From NCBI GenBank assembly GCA_949291655.1, contig CASEWT010000003.1, forward strand, positions 1-51,538: 51,538 nt of DNA, in the 5' to 3' direction. Below are positions 9,805 through 46,162 of the stretch, in pieces. The notes below the pieces were generated by a model. That model did not search any database, was not told the DNA's origin, and worked only from the letters and a program-made list of their open reading frames with translations. A program made the position numbers and the translations under genes. The stretch is from an uncultured Bacillota bacterium. Lineage in GTDB: Bacteria; Bacillota_I; Bacilli_A; RFN20; CAG-826. The stretch's first letter is position 1. Each line of letters starts with the position of its first letter.

Positions 9805-11305
9805 TCTTGCGTTCCTCCTCTCGCCTTAACGAATTCTTGATGCGGGTCGAGACAATCTTCGGCATCTCGGCTTCCGGCGCCCTTTCGTCAAGGAGCCAAG
9901 TGGAAGCGTAATGGGTCGAGGAAAGCTCGTACATCGGGGGCTCTTCCTTGAAGTCCATGCCGATGGCATAGCGGCTCCGGAGGGCGAAGGCGTCGCCCTT
10001 CGGCGGGAAAAGCATGTTGGGCGGGGTGCCCGGGATCGCCTCGAGCCGCTCCTTGCTATCGACGTCGGGAATCGAGGAAAGCAAGGCCCAGGTATAGGGG
10101 TGGGCCGGGCGGAAGAAGATATCCTCTGCGGTGCCGTACTCGACGATCTTCCCGGCATACATGACCGCGACCCGGTCGGCCATGTTGGCGACGACGCCGA
10201 GGTCGTGGGTGATGAAGACGACCGACATGTTCCGGGCCTTCTTCAGCCGGTTGATGAGTTCGAGGATCTGGGCTTGGATGGTAACGTCGAGGGCCGTCGT
10301 CGGCTCGTCGCAGATAAGCACGTCGGGGTCGGCGGTGAGAGCAATGGCGATGACGATGCGCTGGCGCATGCCGCCGGAGAATTCGAAGGGGTATTGGTTG
10401 TAGCGGCGTTCCGGATCGCGGATGCCGACTTCCTGCATGATGGTAAGGGCCCGCCGCTTCGCTTCCTTCTGGGAAACGCGGAGCTTCGAGACGAAGCGCC
10501 GATGGGCGGAGACGAAGGCCCCGTAGGCTTCCGAGAAGCCGCCGGCAAAAAGGGCGCCAAGGGCCTTCCAAAGAAGGGGCAAGGCGTTCTTCCGGTAATC
10601 CTTGAGGCAAGCAAGGCGGTAGGACCTCGCCTTCTTGCGGCCCTCGGCCTTCTTGGCGCGGAGGGCCACCTTGTCCTCGGCAATCCGGGGAGCCATCTTG
10701 GCCTTCATGTCCCTATAGGCCTGAACATTGGCCGTTTTCTCCTCTTTGGAAAGGGAATTGCCGGCATTTTTCAACTTGAGTTCGCTTTTGGCGAGGGCGA
10801 CGAGGCGCTGGTCGTTCTTCAGTTGGATGAGAGCGTCGTTGATGGTGTCTTGGTAGATCTTCTTGACCCGGTTCCCGTTGATGAGCATGACCTCGGTGAT
10901 TTGTTTCCCTACCCTCATGATCGGGTTGAGCGAGGAAAGGGGGTCTTGGAAAACCATGCCGATCTTCGTCCCGCGGATCCGATGGAATTCCTCTTCCGAG
11001 ATCTTCGTGAGGTCCTCGCCCTCGTAGATGACTGAGCCCGAGTCGATGTGGGCCGAAGGGGCGAGGATGCCCATGATGGTCTTCGAGGTGACGGATTTCC
11101 CGGAGCCCGATTCCCCGACGATGCAGAGGGTTTCCCCTTTGTAGAGGTCGAAGCTGACACCCCGGACGGCCCGGACATAGCCTTCGTCGGTCTTGAAGGA
11201 GACGGCGAGGTTGCGGACCGAAAGGACCGGCGTCTTTCCCTCGGGAACGGGGCCGGTTTCTCTCGGATAGTCGATTATGCGGAGAGCCTTGGCATTCTTT
11301 TCCAT
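9791..11305 (-). CDS. oppD: Oligopeptide ABC transporter ATP-binding protein with an internal insertion
   Basis: [36 protein letters not shown] and HPYTWALL. Confidence 0.92.
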
Positions 11306-13380: not shown

Positions 13381-13384
13381 AAGG

Positions 13385-14431
13385 TTACCTCTGTCCCATC
13401 CGGATGCGCGGGTCGACGACCCCGTAGGAGAGGTCGACGAGCAAGGTGGCGAAGAGCCCGATGATGGTGTACATGGCCATGTCGACCATGACGACGGCGT
13501 AGTCGCGGGAGTTCAGGGCGGTGACGAAGAGCTGCCCGGTTCCCGGAATCGAGTAGAGCTGCTCGAGAACCATCGAGCCGGACATGATGGAAATGAATTG
13601 CCCGATGATCATCGGAACGATGGGGACCATCGAGTTGCGAAGGGCGTGGGAGATGATCGATTGGCCTTTGGTAAGCCCCTTGGTCCGGGCCAAAAGGAGG
13701 AACTCCGAGTTCATGACCTCGCAAAGCTCGGCCCGGGTATAGCGCCCGAAGCCGGCGATCGAACCGAAGGAGAGGGCGAGGACGGGAATGACGAGGCCGC
13801 GGAAGAAGAGCGAGGGGTCGGCCGCGATGGCGATGGCGCTTGGCCAGGCCTGCGGCAGCCAGTCGTTGTAGTAGGTGAACCAAAGGAGCATGAAGGAAAT
13901 GAGGACGAAGCTCGGGACCGAGATGAAAACCATGATGAGGGTCGAGATGATCGTATCGGTCGGCTTGTTCTTCTTGAGGGCTGCCCAGACGCCGATGCCG
14001 ATGCCGAGCGGCGTCGAGACGATGATCGAAATGACATTCAGCTCAATCGTGACCGGAAGGCGTTCCATGATGATTTCCATGGCGCCGCGGTTGACCGAAA
14101 TGGCCGTCGAAACGCCCCAGTTCCACTGAGTGAAGATGTTCCCGAGCCAGTGAACGTAGCGCTCGAGGACCGGAACGGCCTGGTAATAGTAGACCGTTCC
14201 GTTGGCATCGGTGAGCCGAACGGCATCCGGGTAGCGCTCAATGACGTCTTCGAGAGTCACCCTCCAATAGTAACCAAGCTCAACTTGCTGGTCATAAAAG
14301 GAGATCTGAATCGCGGTAGTGCCTTCGGGCGGGGCAACCGGCAACGTCTGAATGAGAATGTAAGAGATCGAGAGAATGATGAAAGCCGTAAGGACGATCA
14401 ACCCGATTCTCTTAAGGACATATTTCCACAT
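13385..14431 (-). CDS. oppB: Oligopeptide ABC permease
   Basis: MWKYVLKR start with a GAGGA RBS, ARTKGL, HALRNS, EQLYSIPGTG and DPRIR. Confidence 0.92.
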   Translation of the reverse strand: MWKYVLKRIGLIVLTAFIILSISYILIQTLPVAPPEGTTAIQISFYDQQVELGYYWRVTLEDVIERYPDAVRLTDANGTVYYYQAVPVLERYVHWLGNIFTQWNWGVSTAISVNRGAMEIIMERLPVTIELNVISIIVSTPLGIGIGVWAALKKNKPTDTIISTLIMVFISVPSFVLISFMLLWFTYYNDWLPQAWPSAIAIAADPSLFFRGLVIPVLALSFGSIAGFGRYTRAELCEVMNSEFLLLARTKGLTKGQSIISHALRNSMVPIVPMIIGQFISIMSGSMVLEQLYSIPGTGQLFVTALNSRDYAVVMVDMAMYTIIGLFATLLVDLSYGVVDPRIRMGQR

Positions 14432-14502
14432 GCTTGTATCCTCAGGTGCCTTTCCAATGGGCATTTTCGCACGAAACGCCTACGGCGGCACCCTTTTTTG
14501 AT

Positions 14503-14536
14503 TAAGAAAGGGTGGGGAGAGCGACTCCCCACCCTT
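14503..14536 (-). terminator. Intercistronic hairpin / partial terminator between oppA and oppB
   Basis: 12-bp stem AAGGGTGGGGAG/CTCCCCACCCTT followed by TCTT on the minus strand. Confidence 0.7.
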
Positions 14537-14556
14537 GAAGCCGATATGAGAGCCGA

Positions 14557-26847: not shown

Positions 26848-27132
26848 TCTCGAAAGACTCCTTTCTTCCGGATGGGATAAACGCCAAAGAGACTCCGGAT
26901 CGATCGCTTGGCGTTAAGGCCCTCAAAACACCTCCCCCATAGGCCTTATATGGGGGACATTATGGGAGATTGTGAAATTTTCAATAAAAAGGTGCAGTTG
27001 TTTAAACAAAATCGCAAACAGAGCCTGCCATCGAGAAAATATTTCGCACTCAACGTTACATTATTGTTGACATAAGGAGTGTTTCGCCTAGTCTGCACGC
27101 ATGAGTACGCGAATAAGAAAGGATATTTCGCC

Positions 27133-27972
27133 ATGGAAAAAGCGCTTCTTGCCATTCCGATAGCCTTGGCTCTTCTGCTCCCTTCTTGCGCCCAAGGGAA
27201 CCCCGCATCGTCTCCCGGCGGGCCCTCGTCGGAAGGGACCTCGGACATCTCCTCTTCCCTCGGCAGCTCTTCAGAAGGGCCGGGCAGCGAAGAGGAGGTC
27301 GACTTCAAGGACTATTCCATCATCACCAGCGACATCACCCTTGGGGGATACCTCCCCGAGGCGGCAATCGGCCTCGCCTTCCTAACCGGGCGATCTTATA
27401 CCATTTCCTTCTCCTTCTCGGTCGCGAACCTCGAGGGGGCCGAAGTCTTCTCGACCCATCCCGAATACCTGGAAGTCGAGGCAACCTCGACGGAAGGATC
27501 CTATGTCCTCCACTGCAAGAAGGACGGGGACCCCGGCCTCTTCATCCGGGACGGAGAGGGCCGGACCCATTACCGAAGCAACATCCATATCCGGGATGCC
27601 ATCGGCCTCGATGAGATGGAAAGCTATCTCGTCGGAATCGACCACTACCAGAGTTGGGGCCTCAACGGGGGAAACATCCAATTGACCTTCCTCGGGAACC
27701 AGACGGCGATGCTGACCGGGACCGACGAGGGGAACGTCCCGCTTGGAACGAACGGCATCCAGTTCACCTATGAATACGACATGACGCTCGATGCTTCCGG
27801 GATGTATGTCTTCACGATCCTCGATTGGGAGAACCCCTACACCAGCCTCACGGCCAACGCCTTCCATGTGAGCATGGCCGGAGACATCATCCACCTGACC
27901 AACGGCACGGTCGGGACCGAATCCTTCTATACCTGCGAAATCTTCCAGATTGCCGAGGCTCTTGCCGAATAA
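27133..27972 (+). CDS. Hypothetical lipoprotein
   Basis: AAAGGA RBS, lipobox LLPSC and a Ser-rich linker. Upstream TTGACA-16-TAGTCT (27067-27094). Confidence 0.78.
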   Translation: MEKALLAIPIALALLLPSCAQGNPASSPGGPSSEGTSDISSSLGSSSEGPGSEEEVDFKDYSIITSDITLGGYLPEAAIGLAFLTGRSYTISFSFSVANLEGAEVFSTHPEYLEVEATSTEGSYVLHCKKDGDPGLFIRDGEGRTHYRSNIHIRDAIGLDEMESYLVGIDHYQSWGLNGGNIQLTFLGNQTAMLTGTDEGNVPLGTNGIQFTYEYDMTLDASGMYVFTILDWENPYTSLTANAFHVSMAGDIIHLTNGTVGTESFYTCEIFQIAEALAE

Positions 27973-27987
27973 AAGGAGAACAAAGAC

Positions 27988-30762
27988 ATGAAAAACGCCA
28001 AAAAGACCCTTCTCGTTGCCCTCCTCGGGGCCGGGCTCGTCCTCGCTTCGTGCGGGGGGACGGACAATTCCTCTTCCGAACCGGAAGAGGGTACCTCGAC
28101 CTCGACTCCTTCGGGAACCTCCGCCTCTTCCGAGCACCCCGGTTCGTCAAGCGAGGTTTCCCTGCCCGATTCGAGCCCCTCGACCTCGACGCCGGAGGAA
28201 ATCGTCGAGGACTATCTCGTCGATATCGTCGAGACGACCGGCGTCCACATTGTTTCCAACCTCACCCGGGCCAAGCCGGGAGATACCGTCATCCTGACCG
28301 TAACCGTCGAAAGCGGCTACGTCCTCACTTCGCTTACGATGAACGGCGAACCCCTGACCCCAGGAACCGACGGCACCTATTCCTTTACGATGCCCGACCG
28401 CGACGCGACCATTCGGGCGACGGTAACCGTCGAGGGGGAAGTGACGATCGGCGGAGCCGTCTCGGGGACCTTCGCCGAGAACGGCGACGGAACGTGGACC
28501 GCCCACGACATTGAGATCCCGGCTTCGGGCGGCCAGATCTATGTCCGCGTCAGTCCGGAAGGCGGAACGCCCGATCTTCTCGGGTATAGCGACCTCGATC
28601 TCTACAAATGCTTCGGGAACATCACTTACTACCACTCCTCTGGCACGGACATCGGCTCGATCGCGGATGATCTCGGCATCAGCGTGAGCGAGGAGAAGGG
28701 GCGCGGCTCCTTGATCCTTCTTGGTGGCAATGCGGCCTACGACATCACCTACGACCCGGCTTCCGAGTTCAAACTTTCGATCCAGCGGACGGCCGTCACC
28801 GTTCTCCCAACGACCTCCGAGCAGCTCTATAGCCTCTTCGAGGGATCGATCCTAAGCGAGACGCCGAGTTATCCCGCCGGGGTGACCGAAGTCGAGTATT
28901 ACGATTCGGCGGCCGGCCAGAACGGAGAGGACTACCACTACGTTCGTTACGCGGACGGCTCTTCCCATGCGAAGATCGTCGACCATGATAGCGGCGAGGA
29001 AGTGGCCCATGTCTACAAGGAAATCGTGACCACCGGCGGAAGGAAGCAGCTCATCGTCGTCGACAACTACCTCCGGGGCCGCACCTATAGCGACCTCTCG
29101 GGCGGAACCTCTTCCCTCGAAGGGGACAGCGAAGCGGCAGCCGACGTCGAAGCCTATAGCGGCCGTTACGACGTGGTCGACACGGTGCAAAACGGCTATT
29201 CCCGCTATCAGTACGACGAACGCGATGCTGCCTTCCTGGCCGGAAGCTACGATCACACGATGGCCGAGATCGACTTGGTCCAGTACCAAGCTTACCGCCA
29301 CTCCTTCGAAATCGCCGACGACCTCGTCCGAACCGAACTCGACATCGTTCCGGTCGAAAACGGCGATGGCACCTTCACCGTGACCGTCGACTCCCTCAAG
29401 GAGTGGAATCCGAGCGCATCGGGAAGCATCTACAACACGATGGACGTCGATACGGTCGGGACATGGCACCTCGAGATGACCTTCACCGCGGCAGGAGCCC
29501 TGCTCGAAGGTTCCTACCTTCTCAAGAAGTACACGGCAACCAGCTACAATTTCGCGACCCATGAGTTCATCGGCGATCCGGAAACGACGGGAACCCTCAT
29601 CCGGGAGCTCCGCTATTCCTACACCTATGGCGAAGCCGCGGCCAATCCCCACGACTTCGACTACGCGCCCTACTTCGCTTCTTCGATCGACCCCTACATC
29701 GAGACGACCGGCGGGGAGCGCAACGTCCTCGAGGCCGGCTGGAACTCCATCAACGACGAAGACTCGATCCACGTCAATCCTTCCCCCTCGACGGCCCTCG
29801 ATAGCTGGCAATACGGCATCATCGGCTCCGACAATCCCGACATCTGCCGGAACGAGGACGGAAACCCGACGGCTTACCAAATGTACGGAACCGGCGAAGT
29901 GACCCTCTACTTCGGCAACCATACCGACAATGCGGTCACCGGGTCGGTCGTAGTGACCATCGACGCCTCGACCTTCCATAGCCTGGCTTGGATTCCCTAT
30001 TACGCCGGGGGCATCTATTCCGACGACAACATCCTCACGGCCGATAATCTCCAGGTCTATGGCAACAGCAGCCATACCGTCACCCTTTCCCCGACGCCGA
30101 GCAACGGCACCCTCTTCGGCCTTGAGTGGACGATGGACCAGGAGGGCCTCATCGAGCTCGACCTCGATTCGGCAACCGGCCGCTGCACGGTGACGGCCCT
30201 TAGAAACGTTGCCCAAGCGACGACGGTCAACATAACCTTCGTCTCCCCTTACATCGATAACGTCGACGGCTATTGCACCCTCCAGGTCACGGTCGTCCCC
30301 GGAGCCGACGATGAGGTTTCAATCGCGACCCTCGCCGGGACTTACCGGGTAGAGCTCGGGGAAGGCGAGACCGGCTATAACCCCGACGACCCGACGATCC
30401 TCACCCTGACCGCCGAGCCCTCGAGCGACAATCCCGACGCTTACGAAGCAACGATCGAGATGTTCGACGAAGGCGCCACCTTCGAGGTCGGCTTCGACTA
30501 CGTTTACGATAGCGAGAACTTCGAGCTCTCCGTCGTCTCGGGAAGCGCGGAACTCCTAAGCGGCTCCCTAGGCTCCTACGACAACATTGTCATCAGCCTT
30601 GACTACGAGGTCGCGACCAGCAAGGTCGGCGTCTACCTGGCGACCGAGACCTACGACTGGGACACCTATAGCGAGACCATCACTCCTTATCTCGGGGAAT
30701 ACACCGACGACGAAGATTACTCCTACATTTCGGCCTACGTCTATTTCGTGAAGGCCGAATGA
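27988..30762 (+). CDS. Large acidic lipoprotein with an N-terminal B-repeat-like domain
   Basis: AAGGAG RBS, lipobox VLASC, and AKPGDTVILTVTVESGYVL...FTMPDRDATI. Confidence 0.8.
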   Translation: MKNAKKTLLVALLGAGLVLASCGGTDNSSSEPEEGTSTSTPSGTSASSEHPGSSSEVSLPDSSPSTSTPEEIVEDYLVDIVETTGVHIVSNLTRAKPGDTVILTVTVESGYVLTSLTMNGEPLTPGTDGTYSFTMPDRDATIRATVTVEGEVTIGGAVSGTFAENGDGTWTAHDIEIPASGGQIYVRVSPEGGTPDLLGYSDLDLYKCFGNITYYHSSGTDIGSIADDLGISVSEEKGRGSLILLGGNAAYDITYDPASEFKLSIQRTAVTVLPTTSEQLYSLFEGSILSETPSYPAGVTEVEYYDSAAGQNGEDYHYVRYADGSSHAKIVDHDSGEEVAHVYKEIVTTGGRKQLIVVDNYLRGRTYSDLSGGTSSLEGDSEAAADVEAYSGRYDVVDTVQNGYSRYQYDERDAAFLAGSYDHTMAEIDLVQYQAYRHSFEIADDLVRTELDIVPVENGDGTFTVTVDSLKEWNPSASGSIYNTMDVDTVGTWHLEMTFTAAGALLEGSYLLKKYTATSYNFATHEFIGDPETTGTLIRELRYSYTYGEAAANPHDFDYAPYFASSIDPYIETTGGERNVLEAGWNSINDEDSIHVNPSPSTALDSWQYGIIGSDNPDICRNEDGNPTAYQMYGTGEVTLYFGNHTDNAVTGSVVVTIDASTFHSLAWIPYYAGGIYSDDNILTADNLQVYGNSSHTVTLSPTPSNGTLFGLEWTMDQEGLIELDLDSATGRCTVTALRNVAQATTVNITFVSPYIDNVDGYCTLQVTVVPGADDEVSIATLAGTYRVELGEGETGYNPDDPTILTLTAEPSSDNPDAYEATIEMFDEGATFEVGFDYVYDSENFELSVVSGSAELLSGSLGSYDNIVISLDYEVATSKVGVYLATETYDWDTYSETITPYLGEYTDDEDYSYISAYVYFVKAE

Positions 30763-30775
30763 AGAGCCGAAAATG

Positions 30776-30810
30776 AGAAAGGCGGGCTCTCGGGCCCGCC
30801 TTTTCTCTTT
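30776..30810. terminator. Bidirectional intrinsic terminator
   Basis: AAAGGCGGGCT-ctc-GGGCCCGCCTTT hairpin between convergent genes. Confidence 0.8.
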
Positions 30811-30879
30811 GTTCGATCAAAATACCGGGTTTTTGCGGCCGATAACGGGGTCAAGGTCTCTTTAAGAGCCTCGATTAAC

Positions 30880-32268
30880 TCAGTTGACTCGGTAGGCCAA
30901 GACGTCGTCGATGGCCTTCTCGACCTCGGCCACGTTGGCTTCCCCGAAGCCGAAGAAGGAGAAGTTGGTCGACCCGTCGATCGAATTCCCGCTTCCCGCG
31001 GAATAATTGATCGCGAAGTCTACGTACGAGGTTCCGCCTTCGTCCCGTCCCCTGATCAAGACGGACCGCGGATAGTAGCCGGCGCTTTGGATCTGGCCTC
31101 CGTTCAAGGCGTCGAAGTCGATGGCCAAAGCGCTATCCTCGATGAGGTAGGAGCCATCGCCGAGGGGATCGGCGAACTCGAGGTAATCCCAAAATAGGGC
31201 TTGCTTGATATAGCCAAGACCGGAAGAGGAATCGGTCAAGTCGCTCGTCGTGATATAGGGATAGGAAAGGACCGGGGAAACCTCGAGGCCGTCTTCGACC
31301 TGACTCAGCATGAAGAGATAGGTCCCGTCGAGGACGTGGTTCAGATAGGTGATTTCCCCATCCGCATCGGCTTGGGGAAGGGAGAGCTCGACGTGGGAGA
31401 AAGAAGCGAAGGCTTGGTCGAAAGCCCCTTGGGAATGTCCGTAGTCGTTATAGAGGCCGACCCAATAGTTCGGCATGAAGTATTCGTTTCCGTAGGACAT
31501 CGTCGGGTCAGAAATGTCAAGGACGTCCCGAATGTAGTTGTCCCTCGAGAAGCGGTCGCGGTAAGAAGCGAGGTCGGATGGGACCTCGTAGAAGGAACCG
31601 CCGCGGGCAAGGAAGCCCTCAACGTCCTCGGACCGCCCGTCGAGGGAGGCGACGCCAAGGGAATATACCTCCCCTTCCACCGTTACTTCGAGGCGGAAGT
31701 CGGCGATGGACGGACCAGCCGTAAGAAGGAAAGAAGTCGCCGCGAGGAAGGCGGACGAAGGAAGCTGAAGCAAGGAGAGAGCCGCCAATTTGTTCAATTT
31801 ATTCGTCAAAGCGTAGCTGGAAGCCCCTTCTTCGAGGCTTTCCAAAGAAAGATCAATGTCGGAGAGAGAAGGGAAAAGGCCGCTTCCATAAAGCTCCGTC
31901 CCCTCCATCAATTCCGATCCCCGAAGGTTCCCTCGCTCGTCGACCGAGAGGCGGTAAACGCCTCCCTCCGCCGCGGCATAGCCGATGCTCAGAAGCCCAT
32001 CGTCGAGATAAAAGTATTCGGGCGCGTAATGGAGGAGGAATCCGCTCTCAATCCCCGAAAGGACATAGTCGTGGGAGGACTGCAAATAGACGAGGGCCGC
32101 TCGGACGTCGTTAGGGGCTGGAAGGGCGGGCTCGGAGACCGAGGAACCCGGAAGCGAGGAAGTTCCTTCCCCGCCAGCGCCCGAAGAACTCGTCAAAGGG
32201 GTATCGCCCTGACAGGAGCAAAGAAGCAACGAAAGGGCCAAAACAAAGGCTGAATGGGCATTTTTCAC
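30880..32268 (-). CDS. Hypothetical lipoprotein
   Basis: GTG start with a GGAGG RBS, lipobox LLCSC and a Ser-rich linker. Confidence 0.78.
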   Translation of the reverse strand: MKNAHSAFVLALSLLLCSCQGDTPLTSSSGAGGEGTSSLPGSSVSEPALPAPNDVRAALVYLQSSHDYVLSGIESGFLLHYAPEYFYLDDGLLSIGYAAAEGGVYRLSVDERGNLRGSELMEGTELYGSGLFPSLSDIDLSLESLEEGASSYALTNKLNKLAALSLLQLPSSAFLAATSFLLTAGPSIADFRLEVTVEGEVYSLGVASLDGRSEDVEGFLARGGSFYEVPSDLASYRDRFSRDNYIRDVLDISDPTMSYGNEYFMPNYWVGLYNDYGHSQGAFDQAFASFSHVELSLPQADADGEITYLNHVLDGTYLFMLSQVEDGLEVSPVLSYPYITTSDLTDSSSGLGYIKQALFWDYLEFADPLGDGSYLIEDSALAIDFDALNGGQIQSAGYYPRSVLIRGRDEGGTSYVDFAINYSAGSGNSIDGSTNFSFFGFGEANVAEVEKAIDDVLAYRVN

Positions 32269-32324
32269 GAATCGTTACCTCCCGTCATGCTTGGAGACTA
32301 GCACAGGGCCGGGAAATCTCAACA

Positions 32325-32399
32325 AAAGAAAAAAGGCCAATGGCCTTAGACAGCTGGACCGCGCCGTGGGAACTTCCGTCGAGATCCAGCCGTCACCAT
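32325..32399 (-). ncRNA. Candidate small structured RNA (12-bp hairpin plus terminator), family unknown
   Basis: GACGGCUGGAUC/GGUCCAGCUGUC pairs fully only on the minus strand (two G-U pairs), followed by AAGGCCA-u-UGGCCUU and a U run. Confidence 0.35.
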
Positions 32400-32463
32400 A
32401 TAAAAGCGAGGGGTTTCCTTTTTATTGGCAAAAGGGGAAATTTAGATAATCTCCCTTCGATCG

Positions 32464-32497
32464 AAAAAGCCGCCCGTAGGATCGTGGGGCGGCTTTC
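32464..32497 (-). terminator. Intrinsic terminator of the PIN-domain gene
   Basis: AAAGCCGCCC...GGGCGGCTTTTT on the minus strand, just after the stop. Confidence 0.8.
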
Positions 32498-32499
32498 CC

Positions 32500-34155
32500 T
32501 TACTTGGACGGGGATTTGAGGTCGCGGATGGCCTTTTGGAGGCCCCGGACCGTGTAATTGAGATCTTTCAGTTCCGATTGCTTGAGAGTCCGGACCAAGG
32601 CCTCTTGGGCTTTGAGGTCCCGGAGCTTGCTCTCGAGGGGATAGGTCGGATTGTTGATCTTGGCCTTGAGGTCGCGGTCAGCAGCAAGGGCTTGCTCGTA
32701 GGAAGGGCTATGGACGGCCTTCCGGCCCGGATGGGGCTTATTGGCCGTAGCCTTGGGGGCAGCGGCTTTCGGGGCTTCCGCTTTGGGACTCGCCTGCGGG
32801 CCTTTTTGGGAAGTCGGCTTCTTGCCCGAGAGGGCTTCTTTTTTCGGGGAAACTTCTTTCGACGGGGCCGAAGGCGCTTTGGCCGACTCCGGTTTCGGGG
32901 CTTCCTCGAGGGTCACCCGATAGTCGCCTTGGTTCTTCTCGATGTGGAAGAGCAGCTTCTTGACCGTGGCATCCTTCTTGCTTCCGGCCTCGAGGAGAGC
33001 CACTTCGTGGACAAGCTTCGAGAAATCGGAATTGACGAGGTCGTGGGGTCCGTGGACGGCGGCGACATAGGGAACCCCGTCGTCGCGAATCATTGTGCCA
33101 TAGCGCCCAAGAAGGTCCTTGAGGGCCGAGATGAAGGTGTCGCCTTTGCCGAAGGGAGCCCGCTTTTTGGGGGCTTCCGGGGCCGGGGCTGGCTTAGCGT
33201 CCGGACGGGCCTTAGGAGCCGGAGCGGCGCTTTGGAGAGCGGGCTTGGCTTCCTTCTCGGAAGAGACTGGCTTTTCCTCGAGGCTCTTCTCTTGGAGAGC
33301 GATGACCTCAGCCTTGGCCTTCAGGAGATCGTCAGGTCCGTATAGCAGCTTCCAGGAGGAAATGTCGGAGGCGCTATAGGGCCCGAGATTCTTGAGCTGG
33401 CGGTCGAGATCGTCGAGCTTTCGGGCCAAGGGATAAGTCGAATTGTGGATATTGCTGGAAATGGCCCGGTCAAGCGTCTTGATATCGAGGGGCACCAAGG
33501 TCTTCGGCTCCTCTTTCTTGGTCGTTTGACGGGGCAAGGGTTGAGCTTCCCGAACGTTCTTTTCGGGGATTTTGGAAGGAAGGTTCCGGCTGCTCCTCAC
33601 GCTGCTGCGGGCTTGGCTTTGGTAAACGTTGCCTTTGTTCTCAAGGAGGTCCCCAAAGGGGTCAACCTTATAGACGTTCACGAACTTGCCGCGCTGGCTG
33701 TCGAGGTTATTGAGGTTTCGGACATCGTCGGCCAATTGCTTGTCCTGGCTGATGAGAATGATTTTCTTGTTGATTCTCTGGGCCGATATCGAGGCATAGA
33801 TGGCCGGATCGGCAAAGTCTTCCGTGCTCCGCACCCTTTCTATCGTGAAGAGCTTGTTGCCTTTTTTGTCGAGCTTCAGAAAGCGAAGGGCCCGCTTGGC
33901 GTCGATCCGCAGCTCAAGCGTCTCTCCCCTCTTGGCGTGTTTCTCGAGTTCGCTGACGACTTGGCCAACCACGATGAACTCGGGACGATGGTCTTCGAAG
34001 TACTCCGTCGACAGGTTCAAGGTGTCGAGGAAGGGGCCGAAGCTTTCTTCCATGAGGGAACAGGTATCGATGTAGCAGAGGTCGATTCCGGACAGGAATT
34101 TAGCCAGCTTCGAAGCCTTCGTTTCCTCGGTGAATTCTTTTCTTTCGATGGTTAT
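32500..34155 (-). CDS. PIN-domain protein with a duplicated C-terminal domain; probable ATA start
   Basis: The frame is open 34 codons upstream of Met 34053 and contains the first PIN motif YIDTCSL. Further motifs are VVSELEK, FADPAI and LISQDKQL. Confidence 0.75.
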   Translation of the reverse strand: MTIERKEFTEETKASKLAKFLSGIDLCYIDTCSLMEESFGPFLDTLNLSTEYFEDHRPEFIVVGQVVSELEKHAKRGETLELRIDAKRALRFLKLDKKGNKLFTIERVRSTEDFADPAIYASISAQRINKKIILISQDKQLADDVRNLNNLDSQRGKFVNVYKVDPFGDLLENKGNVYQSQARSSVRSSRNLPSKIPEKNVREAQPLPRQTTKKEEPKTLVPLDIKTLDRAISSNIHNSTYPLARKLDDLDRQLKNLGPYSASDISSWKLLYGPDDLLKAKAEVIALQEKSLEEKPVSSEKEAKPALQSAAPAPKARPDAKPAPAPEAPKKRAPFGKGDTFISALKDLLGRYGTMIRDDGVPYVAAVHGPHDLVNSDFSKLVHEVALLEAGSKKDATVKKLLFHIEKNQGDYRVTLEEAPKPESAKAPSAPSKEVSPKKEALSGKKPTSQKGPQASPKAEAPKAAAPKATANKPHPGRKAVHSPSYEQALAADRDLKAKINNPTYPLESKLRDLKAQEALVRTLKQSELKDLNYTVRGLQKAIRDLKSPSK

Positions 34156-38465: not shown

Positions 38466-38492
38466 TTAGCACTCGCAAGTGTTGAGTGCTAA
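38466..38492. promoter_or_regulatory. CIRCE element upstream of clpB
   Basis: Perfect TTAGCACTC-GCAAGTGTT-GAGTGCTAA. Confidence 0.95.
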
Positions 38493-38501
38493 TTATGTCT
38501 T

Positions 38502-38849
38502 TCAGTCGTCAGTTTCGATTTCGACAATCTCGAACTCCGTTCCGTCGATGGTGACGAAATCGTCTCGGGCACCGCATTTCGGGCATACCCGGTCGCTATC
38601 GGCAACAAGAAAAACGAAGCCGCATTTTCGGCAACGGCCGTGGGCTTTCCGCACGTTCAGTTTGAGCAGGCAATCCGCGTAAGGAGTTCCCTCCCTGGCC
38701 GCTTCCCAGCACTCGAGAAGAAAACGGGGAACGACCATCGAAGCCTCCCCCACGTCCAAAGTCACGGAAGAGAGGTGGTTTATCCCTTCCCGTTTCAAGA
38801 GGTCGTCGAGCGTCGACATGAGCTCGAAGCACAAGCCCATCTCGTGCAT
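38502..38849 (-). CDS. hypA: Nickel metallochaperone HypA
   Basis: N-terminal MHE Ni-binding motif and two CxxC Zn motifs (CRKC, CPKC). Confidence 0.93.
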   Translation of the reverse strand: MHEMGLCFELMSTLDDLLKREGINHLSSVTLDVGEASMVVPRFLLECWEAAREGTPYADCLLKLNVRKAHGRCRKCGFVFLVADSDRVCPKCGARDDFVTIDGTEFEIVEIETDD

Positions 38850-38851
38850 GG

Positions 38852-41698
38852 CTAGCGAATCGTTTCCTTCTTGCCGTCTTGGAGTTCAAGGTCGTCTTTG
38901 TTCACGAGCTTGGCCTTTCCCTTGCCGGTGAAGATGATCTTGAGGTTCCGCGAAAGAAGGTGGGGAGCGGCATTGGCCGTCGATTTTTCGTAAACGACGC
39001 CTTGGGCATCGAAGCGGCGTTCAAGATGGATGGCGTCGAATTCGCACCGGGTCGTGCATAGCCCGCATCCGACGCACATCGTCTCGTCGACGAAGGTCCG
39101 GCCGCACTTCAGGCAGCGTCCCGCTTCTTTCTTGACTTCGGCTTCGGTCAGGAGGACGCGGTCGTCTTTCATCTCATCCTCGTCCTTCGACCGCCTCACC
39201 TCGACCCGCGGAGCATTGTCGAAGCCTTGGACGACGACATTGTCCTTGTCGAGCATGTAAGAGGCCAGATACGGATTTTGGGCGCGGCCGATGGTGAGGG
39301 ACTGGCCGGGATGGACACGGCGGTGCATCGATTCGGAAGCCTCGTGTCCAGCTGCAATGGCGTCGATGACGAAACGGGGGCCATAGTGGCAGTCTCCGCC
39401 GGCGAAAACGTCAGGATCGTCGGTTTGCAGCGTCAAACCGTCGGCTTTGATTCGGCCCGAAGCCCCGAGGGCACAGGTAGTGCCGTCGAGCAAGCGCCCC
39501 CATTCGCATTGCTGCCCGATGGCGGCAATGAAATAGTCGCATTTGACTTCCAAAAGGTCGTCTTCGTCGTAAGAGGGGTTGAAGCGATAGTTTTCGTCAT
39601 AAACGGATAAGCACCTCTTGAGGACGGCGTTGCGGAGGACGCCGCGCTCCCCTTGGAATTCCTTGACGCCCCAACCGTTGTGGATGAGGATCCCTTCCTC
39701 TTCGGCCTCCTCGATTTCTTCCTCGGCCGCGGTCATGAGGCTCCGGCTTTCGAGACAATAAAGGTCGACGGCCGAAGCGCCATAACGAAGGGCGGTCCGA
39801 GCGACGTCAATCGCGACATTGCCTCCGCCCATGACGGCCACCCGGCCTCTTAGCCGCGGGGCCTTTCCGAGGTTGACCCCTTTAAGGAAGGCGATTCCGG
39901 AAAGAATGCCTTGGTTTTCTTCCCCGGCCACACCCAGCTTCCGGCTGCCTTGGGCTCCGATGGCCAGATAGAAGGCCTTGAAGCCTTCGTTTTTCAGTTC
40001 CTGAATCGAGACGTTCTTGCCGACCTCGACCCCGGTCTTGAATTCGACCCCGAGATCGCGGAGGACGTCGATTTCAGCTTCGACGACCCGCTTCTCGAGA
40101 CGGAAGGAAGGAATGCCGAGCGTCAGCATCCCCCCGAGGCGGTTCTCTTTTTCGAAGACGGTTACCGCATAGCCTTTCGCCGCGAGGTAATAGGCACAGC
40201 TGAGGCCCGAAGGTCCCCCGCCGATGACCGCCATCTTGATATCGTGGAATTCCGGGTGCTCAATTCGCGGCAAAACCCGGGTCTTTTTGTTCAAATCGAG
40301 TTCGGCAACGTACTTTTTGACCTCGTCGATCGACACCGCGTCGTCGATGCTTCCCCGGGTGCAGGCATCCTCGCAGCGTTTATTGCAAACGCGGCCGCAA
40401 ACAGCCGGGAATGGGTTTTTCTTCTTGATGAGGCGCAGGGCGTCTTCGTAGCGGCCTTGCCGGGCCAGCTCGAGGTAGCCCTCGATGGCAATGTGGGCCG
40501 GGCAGGCGACCTTGCAAGGAGCCGTTCCCGTCTCCGGCATGACATATTCGCGGTTATAGCGGTAATCGGGGTTCCACTTGTCGCTCCCCCACTTGTGGTG
40601 AAAGGCGCTGAGCGGCGTCTTGACCTTGATCGGCTTCTTGTTTTCGAGCCGTTCGCCCAGCTTCAAAGCATTCATCGGGCAGGCTTCGACGCACTCCCCG
40701 CAGGCGACGCACTTGTCGGGATCGATTTTGGAAATGTAGTTGCTTCTAACCATCGTCGCCGTGTGGAAGTACTCGCCCGTCCGAAGGGAAAAGCAAGAAC
40801 AGCCGCAGCAGTTGCACATGGCGTGGGTCGAACCGGGCCCATCGGTATTCGGCATCTCGTGCATGAGGCCGTTGTCCTCGGCCTTCTTCAGAATCGCATA
40901 GCACTCTTCCTTGCTGATGCGGCGGCCGCGCCCGGCATGGATGAAAGCCCGGGCCGCCTCGTTGAACTGGATGCACATGTCGTCCTCGAGATGGCCGCAG
41001 CCCTCGCCCTGGATCCGGCGGGCTACCCGGCAAGAACAAGGGGAAACGCAAATGTCGGTGGCCGTTTCGACATAATGGGAAATCTCTTCGTCGACAGTAT
41101 GCTTCGGGTCGTCCTTGATGGCGCTCTCGATCGGGATGACCCGCATGACGCCGCCGCCGATCGGAAGGTTCCCGGCCAGGGGCATGATGCGCTTGATGGT
41201 GTATTCGTTGAAGGCCTCCGGGATCTCGGGATGGGTTTCGGCGAGTTTGACGTTGTCGACCAGGCACTCCATGATTCCCGGCACGAAAATTGGGATCCAG
41301 TAGCCGCCCTGCTTCTTGTTGTTCTTGTCCGGGCCGACCTCCGGGTCCTCTGGATCGAACATCAAAATCCCGGTCATCGCCAGGGCGCTAAGCATCGGCG
41401 CCGCCTTTTCGACCGGCATCTTGTTCTTCTTGGCGACATCCTCGACCGTATAGTGCTTCCGCAGCTTCATCGAGAGGACGAGTTTGGCCTCTTCGTCGCT
41501 TACGCAGCAAGCGAGGGCATTGTACTCGGGGTCTCCAGCCACGACCTTGACACCGGGTAGCGTCTGGATGTGATTGGCAAGCTTGGTTATGAACTTTCTT
41601 TCTTCTTTCCCGGAGGGCAAAGCGTTTTTGACTGGGCCGTCCTTATAGATGCCTTCGGCATAGTCTTGCTTGTCGACGCGATACTTTTTCTCGTCCAT
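38852..41698 (-). CDS. Multidomain FAD/NAD(P)-dependent Fe-S oxidoreductase (GltD-like core with a Cys-rich N-terminal domain)
   Basis: CSC, MC and CNCCGCSC domain; ferredoxin motif CVACGECVEACP; PCKVACP...CGRVCNKRCEDAC; GGGPSG; GGGNVA; C-terminal RCLKC and CVGCGLCTTRC. Confidence 0.88.
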   Translation of the reverse strand: MDEKKYRVDKQDYAEGIYKDGPVKNALPSGKEERKFITKLANHIQTLPGVKVVAGDPEYNALACCVSDEEAKLVLSMKLRKHYTVEDVAKKNKMPVEKAAPMLSALAMTGILMFDPEDPEVGPDKNNKKQGGYWIPIFVPGIMECLVDNVKLAETHPEIPEAFNEYTIKRIMPLAGNLPIGGGVMRVIPIESAIKDDPKHTVDEEISHYVETATDICVSPCSCRVARRIQGEGCGHLEDDMCIQFNEAARAFIHAGRGRRISKEECYAILKKAEDNGLMHEMPNTDGPGSTHAMCNCCGCSCFSLRTGEYFHTATMVRSNYISKIDPDKCVACGECVEACPMNALKLGERLENKKPIKVKTPLSAFHHKWGSDKWNPDYRYNREYVMPETGTAPCKVACPAHIAIEGYLELARQGRYEDALRLIKKKNPFPAVCGRVCNKRCEDACTRGSIDDAVSIDEVKKYVAELDLNKKTRVLPRIEHPEFHDIKMAVIGGGPSGLSCAYYLAAKGYAVTVFEKENRLGGMLTLGIPSFRLEKRVVEAEIDVLRDLGVEFKTGVEVGKNVSIQELKNEGFKAFYLAIGAQGSRKLGVAGEENQGILSGIAFLKGVNLGKAPRLRGRVAVMGGGNVAIDVARTALRYGASAVDLYCLESRSLMTAAEEEIEEAEEEGILIHNGWGVKEFQGERGVLRNAVLKRCLSVYDENYRFNPSYDEDDLLEVKCDYFIAAIGQQCEWGRLLDGTTCALGASGRIKADGLTLQTDDPDVFAGGDCHYGPRFVIDAIAAGHEASESMHRRVHPGQSLTIGRAQNPYLASYMLDKDNVVVQGFDNAPRVEVRRSKDEDEMKDDRVLLTEAEVKKEAGRCLKCGRTFVDETMCVGCGLCTTRCEFDAIHLERRFDAQGVVYEKSTANAAPHLLSRNLKIIFTGKGKAKLVNKDDLELQDGKKETIR

Positions 41699-41701
41699 CC
41701 T

Positions 41702-42376
41702 TCACTCCTCCTTATAGGCTTCAACAAGCCTCAATAGATAGGCAGCCAGTTCCTCGATCCCCTCGCCCGTTTTGGCCGAAACCGGGAAAAAGCAGGCCTC
41801 GGGATTCAAGCGCCGGATGTTTTCCTTCGCCTGATCGATCGAGAAATCGAAATATGGCAAGACGTCGACCTTCGAGAAAACAAAGGTCGAGCAAACCTTG
41901 AACATCAACGGGTATTTGAGAGGCTTGTCGTCGCCCTCGGGAATCGAAAGGATGTTGAGGCTCGAAACAGCCCCGGTATCGAATTCGGCCGGGCAGACGA
42001 GGTTGCCGACGTTTTCGAGAATCACGAGGTCAAAGCCGTCGATACCGAGGCCTTCGAGCCCCTCTTTCGTCATTTCGGCATCGAGGTGACAGGCTCCGTT
42101 AGTGTGCAGTTGGATGGTCTTTACGTCGGTCTTTTCGCTGATTGTCTCGGCATCGACCGCCCCGTCGATATCGGCTTCCATCACGGCGATCTTCAATTTG
42201 TCTTTGAGCCGATTGATCAAAGAAACGAGAAGAGTCGTCTTCCCGCTCCCGGGTGAGGACATGACGTTAAGAAGATAAACGCCTTTTCCTTTGAGGAATT
42301 GACGAAGTTCCTCGGCCCGCTTTTCGTTATGCGAAAAAACGGATTCCTTGACGCTGATAACCTTGAATCTATCCAT
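41702..42376 (-). CDS. hypB: Nickel-incorporation GTPase HypB
   Basis: SSPGSGKTT, ACH metal site, ENVGNLVCPAEFD, EGDDKPLKYP and SAKTGEG. Confidence 0.95.
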   Translation of the reverse strand: MDRFKVISVKESVFSHNEKRAEELRQFLKGKGVYLLNVMSSPGSGKTTLLVSLINRLKDKLKIAVMEADIDGAVDAETISEKTDVKTIQLHTNGACHLDAEMTKEGLEGLGIDGFDLVILENVGNLVCPAEFDTGAVSSLNILSIPEGDDKPLKYPLMFKVCSTFVFSKVDVLPYFDFSIDQAKENIRRLNPEACFFPVSAKTGEGIEELAAYLLRLVEAYKEE

Positions 42377-42444
42377 GTCTATGCCCCCTCATTGTAGGGC
42401 AAAGAAACGATAATGGCCACTTGGCAAACCGGCCGACGGGCGGC

Positions 42445-43148: not shown

Positions 43149-43236
43149 GGTGCCCGGAGCTTCCCCGAGGAGGCTGAGAGGAGCCGATAATGGCGGCTCG
43201 ACGGTACCTGATCCAGGCAATGCTGGCGGAGGTAAC
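43149..43236 (+). ncRNA. TPP riboswitch
   Basis: GGAGC...GCTGAGAG...ACCTGATCCAGGCAATGCTGGCGGAGG core, upstream of a ThiT homolog. The downstream hairpin GAGCCTCC...GGAGGCTTTTT contains the RBS. Confidence 0.92.
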
Positions 43237-43279
43237 CCTTTTTCTTTGGCGAGCCTCCCCGCGAAAGGAGGCTTTTTGC

Positions 43280-44416
43280 ATGGAACATGTCGACACCCCA
43301 ACACCCACAAAGAAAGGATTCGACTACGACGCTTTCCTTAAACGTTGGCTTTGGCTCATTGCCATCGTCTTCGCGGCGATCGTCTTCGTCGGATTGGCTT
43401 TCCCGCAGTTCGAAGCGAACCCCATCGAAGTGACCGGCGGTCCGATTCTCGTCGACGGGGAGCTCACAAACGGATACACCTTCACGCCCTTGGATGAAAT
43501 CGCCATCGGATTCGGAGCGCTTTTCGCCAACGGCGGAAACTGGATGATTCTCTGGCTTTATTTCCTCCCTCTCTTTTCTCTTATTTTGCTTGTCATATCG
43601 CCTTTTTGCGGTAAATATTCCTCGCATCTCGCCCTGACAGCGGCCATCGTGAGCCTTGTCGCCGGCGTCCTCTTCTTCATTTCCCCGACCCTCTTTGCAT
43701 ACGGCGAATGCTGGCAAGCTATCGGAAGCGACATCGCCCTCGATTACGGCGACCCGGGTTTCATTTACCTCGATGCGGCCTCCCCGGCCTTCCTCCCGGG
43801 AGCGGTCGTCATCGCTGCCCTGTCGCTTCTTTCCTCGCTCGTCAGTTTCTCGCTTTCGGCCAACCTCATCAAAATCAGCATCCGCGACATCTCGGAAATC
43901 GGCATCCTCTCGGCCCTGGCCATCGCCCTTCAATTCATCAAGATCCAAGTCGGGGCCGATGGAGGATCGATCAATTTGGGGCTCGTCCCGCTTTCCCTCA
44001 TTGCCCTGCGCCACGGACCCACGAAGGGTTTCATTGCCGGCGGCCTCGTCTATGGCATCATCACCTGCATAACCGATGGCTACGGCTTCCAAACCTATCC
44101 CTTCGACTACCTGATCGGCTTCGGCTCGATTGCCGAGATCGGCTTCTTCTCCAAGCTCTGCTTCAAGGGCGAAGACGGCTGGAATCCGCTTGGTTTCCTT
44201 TACATCTTCCTCGGAATCGTCCTCGCAACCTTGGTAAGGCTCATCGGCTCCACCATCTCCTCGATGGTCATCTACGGATACGATTTGGTGGCTGCCCTTG
44301 CTTACAACGGAGTCTACATCCCGGTCACGGGAGCCGTGACCCTAGCCTGCATGGAGGCCCTATACATACCGATTGCCAAAGTAAACCGAATCTTCCCGGT
44401 TGAGCGATACGCTTAG
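43280..44416 (+). CDS. thiT: ECF-type thiamine transporter S component ThiT with an extra N-terminal membrane domain
   Basis: C-terminal half has ISEIGILSALAIAL, GGSINL, DYLIGF and YNGVYI. TPP riboswitch upstream. Confidence 0.82.
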   Translation: MEHVDTPTPTKKGFDYDAFLKRWLWLIAIVFAAIVFVGLAFPQFEANPIEVTGGPILVDGELTNGYTFTPLDEIAIGFGALFANGGNWMILWLYFLPLFSLILLVISPFCGKYSSHLALTAAIVSLVAGVLFFISPTLFAYGECWQAIGSDIALDYGDPGFIYLDAASPAFLPGAVVIAALSLLSSLVSFSLSANLIKISIRDISEIGILSALAIALQFIKIQVGADGGSINLGLVPLSLIALRHGPTKGFIAGGLVYGIITCITDGYGFQTYPFDYLIGFGSIAEIGFFSKLCFKGEDGWNPLGFLYIFLGIVLATLVRLIGSTISSMVIYGYDLVAALAYNGVYIPVTGAVTLACMEALYIPIAKVNRIFPVERYA

Positions 44417-44581: not shown

Positions 44582-46162
44582 ATGTTTAAGAAAAGAGCCG
44601 TCGCCATCCTCCTCGGAGGCGCCCTGCTCGCCTTGAGCGGGTGTAACACCCCGAGCGAGAGTTCGCCGACCAACACATCGTCCGAACCAGCATCCTCGAG
44701 CCCTGTCGACTCCTCGTCTCCCGCCGAAGAAGGAATCGTCATCTCCTATAGCGTCGCCGGCGAAATCGTCCATACAGAGACCCTACCCGAAGGCGGAGGC
44801 GTCCCGACCGACTACGATTACAAGCCGACGGCGGGCAAGCTCGTCGACTGGTATTTGACCCCGAGCTTTTCGCGGGCCTATCTCTTCGAGGATCCCCTCA
44901 CCGAAAGCACGACGCTTTTCGGGGCCGTCAACGTCTACCAAGAGGACACACTGGACTACTACATCGCCGGAAGCGGCTCTTCTCCCATCCTTCTTAGTTC
45001 CAACTGGGGCGACACCCCGACTGATCAGCACAAGTTGGCAAAAGACACGGAAACGACCGACGAAAACATCTATTCCATCACCGCTGACCTCTATAAGGGA
45101 GACTCCTTCCAAGTCATCAGTTTCACCGAAACGGAAACCGATCCCTACGCTTGGGACTGGCAATACGGTTCCGGTTATGTCCGCCTCTACGAAGGCGTGA
45201 ACGAATGGATTCAGTCCGACGGCGGACTTGCCGATAGTACCCGCAAGAGCAATATCGGCATCCTCATGGACGGGAACTACACCTTGACCCTCCACACCTA
45301 TCCGAACTTCGAAGGCATCGATGCCGAGAACAACATCAACAATCTCAACTACCTGACCATCGTTCGGAACGGCGATTGCATCGAAGAGCGGCCGGAGACG
45401 ACCCTTTCCTACTACATCAAGGGCGCGAACATCACGGGCTGGGGAAACATGTTCAATAACGCGACCCAGCTTACCCCGAATGCCGATGAGTCGGCCTACA
45501 CCTTGGAGATCTATCTCCGCGAAGGCGAGGAGTTCATGTTCCACACTCTGGCAACCAACGCAGCCGACGGAACCACGAGCGACGCCAACATCTACATCAA
45601 CTACAACAATCTCGACACCACTTCGGCGGCTCTCTTCAGCCATCCGGAAAACGGAACCAATATCTTGGCGACCAAGAGCGGAACCTACACCTTCACCTAT
45701 GTCCCGGGAGCCGACAACGCGGCCGGAACCCTCTCCGCTACCCTTGACGAAACGAAGGGCCTTACCATCGGGGACTACTACATCAACGGGACCATCGCCA
45801 ACGACACCCCGTCCTGGGGGACGAGCAGCGTCACCGAAGCCGACGGCATGACCTTGATGGACACCTATAAGCTGACCGTCGATCCCGACAATGCCGACCT
45901 CTACCTCATCGAAGGCGTGACCTTCCGGGTCGACGACGAATTCACCGTTGCCGCCTTCACGGCCGGGTCGACGACGACGGGCGATGGCTGGTCCAACCAA
46001 ATCGCCAGCTACAACAGCACCTACCTTGCCCCGGCGACGACCGGATTCGAAGCAGCCAGCGCCCAAAACCTGAACGCTAAGTGCACGGAAGCCGGCGTCT
46101 ACGACATCTCCTTCAACGTCTATTCCCGCATCGTCACCATCACCCCGGCGGTCACCGCCTAA
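44582..46162 (+). CDS. Lipoprotein with three tandem putative starch-binding (SusE/F- or X25-like) modules
   Basis: Lipobox ALSGC, a B-repeat-like domain, then three ~130-aa repeats beginning YYIAGS...W, YYIKGA...W and YYINGT...W and ending GNYTL, GTYTF and GVYDI. Adjacent to the maltodextrin genes. Confidence 0.62.
   Translation: MFKKRAVAILLGGALLALSGCNTPSESSPTNTSSEPASSSPVDSSSPAEEGIVISYSVAGEIVHTETLPEGGGVPTDYDYKPTAGKLVDWYLTPSFSRAYLFEDPLTESTTLFGAVNVYQEDTLDYYIAGSGSSPILLSSNWGDTPTDQHKLAKDTETTDENIYSITADLYKGDSFQVISFTETETDPYAWDWQYGSGYVRLYEGVNEWIQSDGGLADSTRKSNIGILMDGNYTLTLHTYPNFEGIDAENNINNLNYLTIVRNGDCIEERPETTLSYYIKGANITGWGNMFNNATQLTPNADESAYTLEIYLREGEEFMFHTLATNAADGTTSDANIYINYNNLDTTSAALFSHPENGTNILATKSGTYTFTYVPGADNAAGTLSATLDETKGLTIGDYYINGTIANDTPSWGTSSVTEADGMTLMDTYKLTVDPDNADLYLIEGVTFRVDDEFTVAAFTAGSTTTGDGWSNQIASYNSTYLAPATTGFEAASAQNLNAKCTEAGVYDISFNVYSRIVTITPAVTA

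Follow-up and report, generated by a model that had tools for sequence, protein, structure and literature searches.

A hypB-flavoprotein-hypA operon

We analyzed 51,538 nucleotides of DNA from an uncultured Bacillota bacterium (GTDB lineage Bacillota_I; Bacilli_A; RFN20; CAG-826; assembly GCA_949291655.1, contig CASEWT010000003.1), a stretch hereafter called the window, and concentrated on three minus-strand genes within it. They encode, in the direction of transcription, the nickel chaperone HypB, an IsrA-like iron-sulfur (Fe-S) flavoprotein and a second chaperone, HypA. In window positions, with stop codons counted at the ends of minus-strand open reading frames (ORFs), the ORF list places hypB (224 aa) at 41702-42376, the flavoprotein gene (948 aa) at 38852-41698 and hypA (115 aa) at 38502-38849. 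Since the end coordinates include the stop codons, the gaps amount to 3 bp between hypB and the flavoprotein gene (41699-41701) and 2 bp between the latter and hypA (38850-38851); the close spacing claimed in an earlier, sequence-only reading of this DNA is therefore exact to the base. A promoter-like site (TGGCCA-17-TACAAT, 42391-42419, minus strand) was found 15 bp 5' of the hypB start. This site is weak because it was recognized by consensus only (9/12 matches), in a scan of 8 kb that gave 4 sites versus 2.5 expected. Downstream, a perfect 9-N9-9 palindrome, TTAGCACTC-N9-GAGTGCTAA, which has no strand and formed a 10-pair stem in the scan, occupies positions 38466-38492 between hypA and clpB. 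We take it to be the consensus of the CIRCE/HrcA heat-shock operator, which would place clpB under HrcA control. The palindrome marks the 3' limit of the operon. With a promoter-like site 5' of hypB and the palindrome after hypA, the locus is therefore a three-gene operon, hypB-enzyme-hypA.

Domain architecture of the flavoprotein

The flavoprotein matched the Pfam domains Fer4 (residues 324-346), Fer4_20 (392-471), Pyr_redox_2 (488-784) and Fer4_21 (869-894). No Pfam family was found for residues 1-320, even at an E value of 0.1, and no known nickel enzyme family (NiFe hydrogenase, carbon monoxide dehydrogenase [CODH], urease or LarA) was among the Pfam matches of the protein. It can thus be described as an N-domain with a winged-helix part and a Cys-rich part (residues ~1-320), a ferredoxin-type cluster site (C330-C340), a GltD/NfnB-like module (392-794) and a second ferredoxin-type site (C875-C885). 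The central module is predicted from its sequence to carry two [4Fe-4S] clusters, in the Fer4_20 domain that corresponds to domain II of dihydropyrimidine dehydrogenase (DPD), together with flavin adenine dinucleotide (FAD) and NAD(P)H sites. The same set of cofactor sites is found in NfnB, GltD and the N-terminal module of DPD, with which residues ~390-794 aligned at E values of 1e-44 to 1e-63 (PDB chains 5jca_L, 4ylf_B, 6s6s_G and 1h7x_A). Unlike the flavoprotein, these chains have no counterpart of residues 1-292; no chain in the PDB sequence search covered this part, and every match began at residue 293 or later. The protein also fell below the cutoff of every GltD/NfnB/AegA/YgfK-type equivalog model in NCBIfam, the best being NF009410 (419.5 bits versus 516), TIGR03315 (279 versus 835) and TIGR01316 (254 versus 472). 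To our knowledge, no enzyme of the NfnB/GltD/DPD group needs nickel chaperones.

The proposed metal site lies in the N-domain, at residues 221-303 (positions 40790-41038, minus strand), and is composed of conserved Cys and His residues in the motifs CSCR (C221 and C223), GCGH (C234 and H236) and CNCCGCSC (C295, C297, C298, C300 and C302), in addition to C242 and H280. All nine Cys residues (221, 223, 234, 242, 295, 297, 298, 300 and 302) as well as H236 and H280 were invariant among 36 N-domain sequences, and G299, between C298 and C300, was nearly so, being replaced by Ala in two homologs. Two CxC motifs, C221/C223 and C295/C297, are 74 residues apart. This Cys-rich site would be the nickel site of the enzyme. 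An AlphaFold2 model of residues 1-390 had a mean predicted local distance difference test (pLDDT) score of 73.7 and a predicted template modeling (pTM) score of 0.78. Compared with PDB folds using Foldseek, it gave nothing at E values of 1e-3 or lower; the first ~130 residues resembled winged helices, with MarR-type and RPC62-type proteins as the best matches, at a TM score on the query of no more than 0.20. In the ESM Atlas, the clusters nearest to residues 40-322 were nameless proteins of 270 to 410 aa, some with Fer4 domains, and gave no functional lead. A predicted complex of the N-domain (390 aa) with HypA scored 0.00 in each of two runs, which were made without controls.

A variant of this site was found at one related locus, L057. 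There, the full-length enzyme gene is followed, at 10730-14688, by hypA, hypB, separate genes for an N-domain protein (433 aa) and a flavoprotein (500 aa), and another hypA. The 433-aa and 500-aa ORFs overlap by 251 bp, and the 38%-identical protein that they encode in two parts is either a natural split form of the enzyme or a frameshifted paralog. It has CNCNVEIC where the window enzyme has CNCCGCSC; C298 and C300 are therefore subfamily specific.

Conservation of HypB and HypA

HypB scored 227 bits against TIGR00073 (cutoff, 121.2) and 66 bits against PF02492. It is the short form, consisting of the G domain only, without a His-rich or CxxCGC N-terminal extension. The P-loop residues G43, G45, K46 and T47 and the metal-binding residues C96-H97 and C128 were conserved in at least 95% of 57 operon-linked HypB sequences. 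HypA scored 86.6 bits against PF01155 (cutoff, 28.9). Its nickel site, M1-H2-E3, and its zinc site, formed by C73, C76, C89 and C92, were invariant in 29 operon-linked HypA sequences. The metal residues that had been noted as intact in both window proteins are thus kept across their relatives as well. According to whole-assembly family searches, the genome has a single HypA gene and a single CobW/HypB-type gene, both at the operon locus.

Nickel proteins in the genome

The assembly comprises 1,256,500 bp in 107 contigs and is 91.16% complete; the window is contig 3. The sequence-only reading had reported that the window contains no NiFe hydrogenase subunit, hypCDEF or urease gene. This is correct for the window and also for the assembly as a whole, in which the NiFe hydrogenase large subunit (PF00374), urease alpha (PF00449) and HypD (PF01924) had no match, HypC and HypE not being among the families searched for. 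The family of CODH and the hybrid cluster protein (HCP; PF03063) was also without a match in the whole assembly. For HypF, only sub-threshold fragments in unrelated proteins were obtained, and they were discarded. The lone sub-threshold match to Lar_N turned out to be a protein with DUF362 and ferredoxin domains, and a LarA-type nickel client was rejected because of it. This weakly matching DUF362 protein has 371 aa, contains the ferredoxin part as an inserted di-cluster domain and is encoded on contig 1 (G000, L003 1090-2205, plus strand).

Linkage of the enzyme to hypA and hypB

Next, the homologs of the enzyme were examined. Among the best 120 of the 7,998 candidates scored, full-length homologs had 890 to 960 aa and were 50 to 92% identical to the window protein; those from metagenome-assembled genomes (MAGs) of Bacilli were 66 to 92% identical, and those from Clostridia, Tissierellia, Chloroflexota and others ~52 to 54%. 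For synteny, one genome per species was used, which gave 599 pattern matches and 381 confirmed relatives; the best 80 loci, including ones from Spirochaetota, Desulfobacterota-type MAGs, Leptolinea and many Clostridia, were translated in six frames and searched with the HypA and HypB of the window. Adequate flanks, defined as at least 900 bp upstream and at least 500 bp downstream, were present at 72 loci. Both chaperone genes were found at 56 of these, only hypA at 8, only hypB at 3 and neither at 5, so that 67 of the 72 loci had at least one of the two. The linkage of homologs to hypAB, on which the earlier proposal depended, is thus a general feature of this set. HypB was encoded directly upstream in 61 of the 77 loci with an upstream flank, and HypA directly downstream in 64 of the 73 with a downstream flank. 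All five genomes behind the loci with neither gene carry HypA elsewhere, and in two of them (G045 and G048) this HypA gene lies directly downstream of another enzyme copy. Other recurrent neighbors were a divergent GntR/FCD regulator (34/80 loci), a DUF5692 membrane protein (25/80) and a TetR regulator (4/80), and genes for CbiM-PDGLE and CbiQ were found beside hypA in 3 of the 80 loci.

Hydrogenases were scored in 49 genomes outside the order to which the window genome belongs; these genomes stand behind 50 of the 80 loci, with G010 left out. PF00374 was present in 24 of the 49 enzyme-carrying genomes and absent from 25, and 9 of the latter also had no match to PF03063. No convincing urease was found in the 25 genomes. 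Urease alpha matches in seven of them were partial, scored 22 to 30 bits and fell inside ORFs of 459 to 579 aa; they were tentatively read as other amidohydrolases.

Co-occurrence in the order

The distribution of these genes was then determined in 151 genomes of the order, including the window genome; 116 of them are at least 90% complete. The N-domain of the enzyme (E value of 1e-20 or lower) was found in 50 of the 151 genomes, and HypB (TIGR00073) in the same 50. HypA (PF01155) was present in these 50 and matched in three more, G066, G131 and G075: the G066 sequence has two in-frame stops, a single stop interrupts the G131 sequence, which is also truncated, and that of G075, at 26 bits, is below the cutoff. 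The stop-interrupted HypA-like stretches of G066 (C1:57449-57751) and G131 (C46:547-837), two genomes in which neither the enzyme nor HypB was found, look like remnants after loss of the operon. When coordinates were read by hand, an enzyme copy with HypA directly downstream, in the same orientation and on one contig, was seen in every one of the 50 genomes. Counted by copy, 55 of the 60 enzyme matches had a HypA gene directly downstream, and two others were at contig ends. In each of six genomes (G073, G091, G143, G170, G176 and G190), two enzyme copies were accompanied by two HypA genes. Because the genomes are related, these counts do not represent independent events. The pattern nevertheless extends over 16 of the 47 genera and includes no fewer than two enzyme subfamilies, which are 66 to 86% and ~35 to 48% identical to the N-domain of the window protein; each is accompanied by a HypA of its own, and both are present in several genomes. 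The subfamily of the window protein is the rarer one, with three other genomes of the order at 66% identity or more.

The search for other nickel enzymes, called for by the sequence-only reading, was extended to the same 151 genomes. NiFe hydrogenase was found in none, urease alpha above the cutoff in none and the CODH/HCP family in one, with a weak score (43 bits). The co-occurrence of the enzyme, HypA and HypB in the order is the strongest result in favor of a client relationship.

Because the flavoprotein is flanked by hypA and hypB in a genome with no known nickel enzyme, it is very probably the client of HypAB, as had been suggested from the window. This assignment, made from sequence comparisons, is strongly supported by the lack of another nickel client in the genome, by the synteny at 67 of 72 loci and by the presence of all three genes in the same 50 of 151 genomes. 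Of the refuting conditions named in the sequence-only reading, the two that sequence data can address, namely, a hydrogenase or urease without hypAB of its own and homologs unlinked to hypAB, were not encountered.

Relationship to IsrA

The combination of genes described here has a precedent. According to Kronen et al. 2023, mSystems (PMC10134865), IsrA is a 901-aa FAD-dependent oxidoreductase that is induced by isoprene in Acetobacterium wieringae ISORED-2, and its gene belongs to an isr operon that further comprises hypB, two copies of hypA and a gene for a 350-aa ferredoxin, in a genome without NiFe hydrogenase and hypCDEF. IsrA ranked among the proteins with the strongest induction, as did HypB and one HypA of the two. 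IsrA is the sole family member with physiological evidence, being induced by isoprene and held responsible for its reduction to methylbutene. Homologs were reported from Firmicutes, Spirochaetes, "Tenericutes" and other phyla, and a neighborhood network of 988 of them gave values of 0.73 for HypA, 0.56 for HypB, 0.4 for DUF5692 and 0.21 for TetR. The same authors proposed IsrA as a likely nickel target, with a Cys6 "cluster V" and the CxC motifs Cys180/182 and Cys254/256; they noted that the Cys6 site is similar in conformation to the A-cluster and pointed to a likeness to P-cluster or double-cubane sites. In a Pelotomaculum enrichment given isoprene, transcripts of hypA and hypB rose ~373-fold and ~585-fold, respectively, according to a 2026 preprint (10.64898/2026.02.25.708027), which still asks for biochemical characterization. 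A biochemical follow-up to the nickel proposal was not present in the papers found on isoprene reductase and on IsrA, HypA and HypB.

From its architecture, Cys spacing and gene neighborhood, compared with the published description of IsrA, the 948-aa protein is, on sequence criteria, an IsrA-family ("clade 9"-like) Fe-S flavoprotein. Both proteins have a layout of ~900 aa in which an N-domain of ~270 to 320 aa without annotation precedes Fer4, Fer4_20 with two [4Fe-4S] clusters, the FAD/NAD(P)H module and a C-terminal Fer4. In either protein, 74 residues separate the CxC motifs (C221/C223 and C295/C297 here, Cys180/182 and Cys254/256 in IsrA). Both genes stand next to hypA and hypB in a host without NiFe hydrogenase, and DUF5692 and TetR genes recur beside the homologs. 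There are also differences from what is described for A. wieringae. Where the isr operon has two hypA genes and the 350-aa ferredoxin gene, the window operon contains a single hypA and lacks a ferredoxin gene, and its order is hypB-enzyme-hypA. IsrA has 26 residues of its own at 756-782 (PMC10134865), whereas no large insertion peculiar to the window protein was seen in the C-terminal third, as judged from an alignment with 12 homologs that did not include IsrA. A. wieringae has CODH together with acetyl coenzyme A synthase (ACS), and LarA; in contrast, no other nickel enzyme was found in the window genome. By its operon layout and the apparent absence of the 26-residue insertion, the window protein lies outside the strict isoprene reductases (IsrA cluster I), and its substrate probably differs from that of IsrA.

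The locus had been presented as an orphan, unrecognized case. This part of the sequence-only reading did not stand: a role of IsrA-family proteins as nickel clients of the adjacent HypA and HypB was already proposed by Kronen et al. 2023 (PMC10134865). The window protein is a member of that published family, and the present finding repeats a published hypothesis. The member lists of clade 9 in the supplement of that paper may already hold this lineage.

Proposed function and alternative explanations

Taken as a whole, the explanation that we consider probable is that the flavoprotein is an IsrA-family reductase with a HypB/HypA maturation pair of its own, and that the metal they deliver, most likely nickel, is placed in the N-domain. 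HypB, a GTPase with a CH...C site, would transfer the metal, which is most likely Ni(II), to the MHE N terminus of HypA, which would then insert it into the Cys-rich N-domain, probably beside or within an Fe-S cluster. NAD(P)H would reduce FAD in the GltD/NfnB-like module, and electrons would run through four [4Fe-4S] clusters to the metal site in the N-domain, where a small unsaturated molecule would be reduced. The flavoprotein is likely a nickel enzyme; we infer which metal is bound, where its site lies, which way electrons flow and what kind of substrate is used; in this gut lineage, the substrate is probably not isoprene.

Known systems offer partial parallels. Helicobacter pylori provides a precedent for a client of HypA and HypB other than NiFe hydrogenase, namely, urease. 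As in H. pylori, the window HypB is a short form with only the CH...C site of the G domain. Unlike H. pylori urease, which also needs UreEFGH, the window operon has no further accessory gene in view, and its proposed client lies outside the established nickel enzyme classes. The A-cluster of ACS and the C-cluster of CODH, served by AcsF and CooC, are comparable only in the way they work: Cys residues bind nickel beside a [4Fe-4S] cluster or inside it, and a dedicated P-loop NTPase inserts it. The window motif includes a C-G-C sequence (C298-G299-C300). There is, in contrast, no sequence or fold relationship to ACS or CODH (no Foldseek match at E values of 1e-3 or lower and no match to PF03063), and the chaperones are HypAB rather than CooC or AcsF.

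Several observations weigh against this interpretation. HypA fell below the cutoff of the NCBIfam equivalog TIGR00100 (61.3 versus 88.1 bits). At 5 of the 72 loci with adequate flanks, neither chaperone gene stands next to the enzyme, and three enzyme copies in the order (G155 C23, G158 C23 and G137 C1) have no adjacent HypA. The genome is 91% complete, and the searches made in it did not extend to HypC and HypE. As for nickel uptake, neither CbiM/NikM nor NiCoT importers were found in the genome, nor were DUF5692 and a FecCD-type permease (tblastn); among the 151 genomes of the order, CbiM/NikM occurred in one, which is without the enzyme, and NiCoT above the cutoff in none. A metal analysis of any family member was not present in the papers found on isoprene reductase and on IsrA, HypA and HypB. 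Finally, stand-alone short relatives of the N-domain core were encoded within 30 kb of HypA in none of 21 cases, in three Desulfobacterota-type genomes. The Cys-rich fold alone is therefore not predictive of HypA dependence, and in these three genomes the Cys-rich domain by itself does not attract HypA.

HypA also binds zinc, and HypB-type GTPases can handle other metals; the metal could therefore differ from nickel. If so, HypAB would mature the flavoprotein with zinc, iron or cobalt, or would assist the assembly of an all-iron Fe-S cluster, and the flavoprotein would not be a nickel enzyme. We regard this as unlikely, if worth keeping in mind. The importer results agree with it, since neither the window genome nor any enzyme-carrying genome among the 151 of the order yielded a recognized nickel importer; so do the structural zinc site of HypA and the nine invariant Cys residues, which could hold a large Fe-S cluster in keeping with the P-cluster/double-cubane likeness mentioned in PMC10134865. 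However, conservation is strict for both the MHE of HypA and the HypB CH...C site, HypB exceeds the TIGR00073 equivalog cutoff, and the genes that adjoin hypA in 3 of 80 loci are of the CbiM/CbiQ type for nickel or cobalt uptake. We know of no HypA/HypB pair that serves a non-nickel site.

Two further explanations were considered. HypAB could serve another nickel protein, unrecognized or unassembled, with the position in the operon being due to co-regulation or chance; an assembly that is 91% complete in 107 contigs leaves room for such a protein, and the enzyme stands without adjacent hypAB at 5 of 72 loci. This is nevertheless very improbable, considering that the enzyme, HypA and HypB are common to the same 50 of 151 genomes, with HypA directly downstream of 55 of 60 enzyme copies, that none of the known nickel clients is evident in the order and that the number of HypA genes tracks the number of enzyme copies in the six two-copy genomes. 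The resemblance of the N-domain model to MarR-type and RPC62-type winged helices, its best structural matches, could instead suggest a redox-sensing regulator whose winged helix binds DNA while the Fe-S/flavin part senses the redox state. We give this idea hardly any credence: the winged-helix matches are weak (none at E values of 1e-3 or lower, with a TM score on the query of at most 0.20), a chain of NAD(P)H, FAD and four [4Fe-4S] clusters with dedicated metallochaperones is typical of catalysis, and many related loci have a GntR or TetR regulator of their own. Moreover, the A. wieringae homolog is the only isoprene-induced redox protein (PMC10134865).

Returning to the IsrA-family reductase matured by HypB and HypA, a more specific version of this proposal, toward which we lean only slightly, is that it represents a further class of nickel enzyme. 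Its Ni-Fe-S site of nine Cys residues, in a fold without a solved relative, would be loaded by HypB and HypA without HypCDEF and fed by NAD(P)H, FAD and four [4Fe-4S] clusters; in the genome-reduced gut Bacilli of this lineage, it would be the sole nickel protein and, as a terminal reductase, would reduce an unactivated or conjugated C=C bond of a dietary or host compound other than isoprene. The nickel part of this version is already a published hypothesis (PMC10134865). The parts specific to this lineage are that a 1.2-Mb gut genome would have it as its sole nickel enzyme and that nickel would enter through an importer other than the known ones. If nickel is confirmed, the few known classes of nickel enzyme would gain another, and the function of the HypA/HypB pair would reach past hydrogenase and urease. 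This lineage provides the cleanest comparative case assembled, with host-associated genomes of 1.0 to 1.6 Mb in which the enzyme, HypA and HypB are gained or lost together. Since the 151 genomes sampled gave no hydrogenase, urease or CODH other than the one weak CODH/HCP match, a member of the lineage or a tractable homolog would be a good choice for metal analysis. A second question is thereby raised, namely, how nickel enters cells without any of the known nickel importers sought.

Surroundings of the operon

The neighbors of the operon in the window, which include ClpB, an alpha/beta hydrolase, a helix-turn-helix protein, an amylase, a sugar-binding protein, a LacI regulator and several proteins without a family, give no clue to the substrate. 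For several long ORFs at 27079-34053 and 44582-46162 (297, 924, 462, 517 and 526 aa), Pfam gave either no family or a single InlB-type repeat, and the 517-aa ORF contains many low-complexity stretches of Pro, Ala and Lys. Divergent from the operon, at 43190-44416 on the plus strand, is a gene for a 408-aa membrane protein whose C-terminal half resembles the S component of energy-coupling factor transporters (Thia_YuaJ, E value of 4.6e-16). This protein, a candidate importer as judged from the similarity, has a counterpart with 60% identity in the same place at the locus most closely related (L006).

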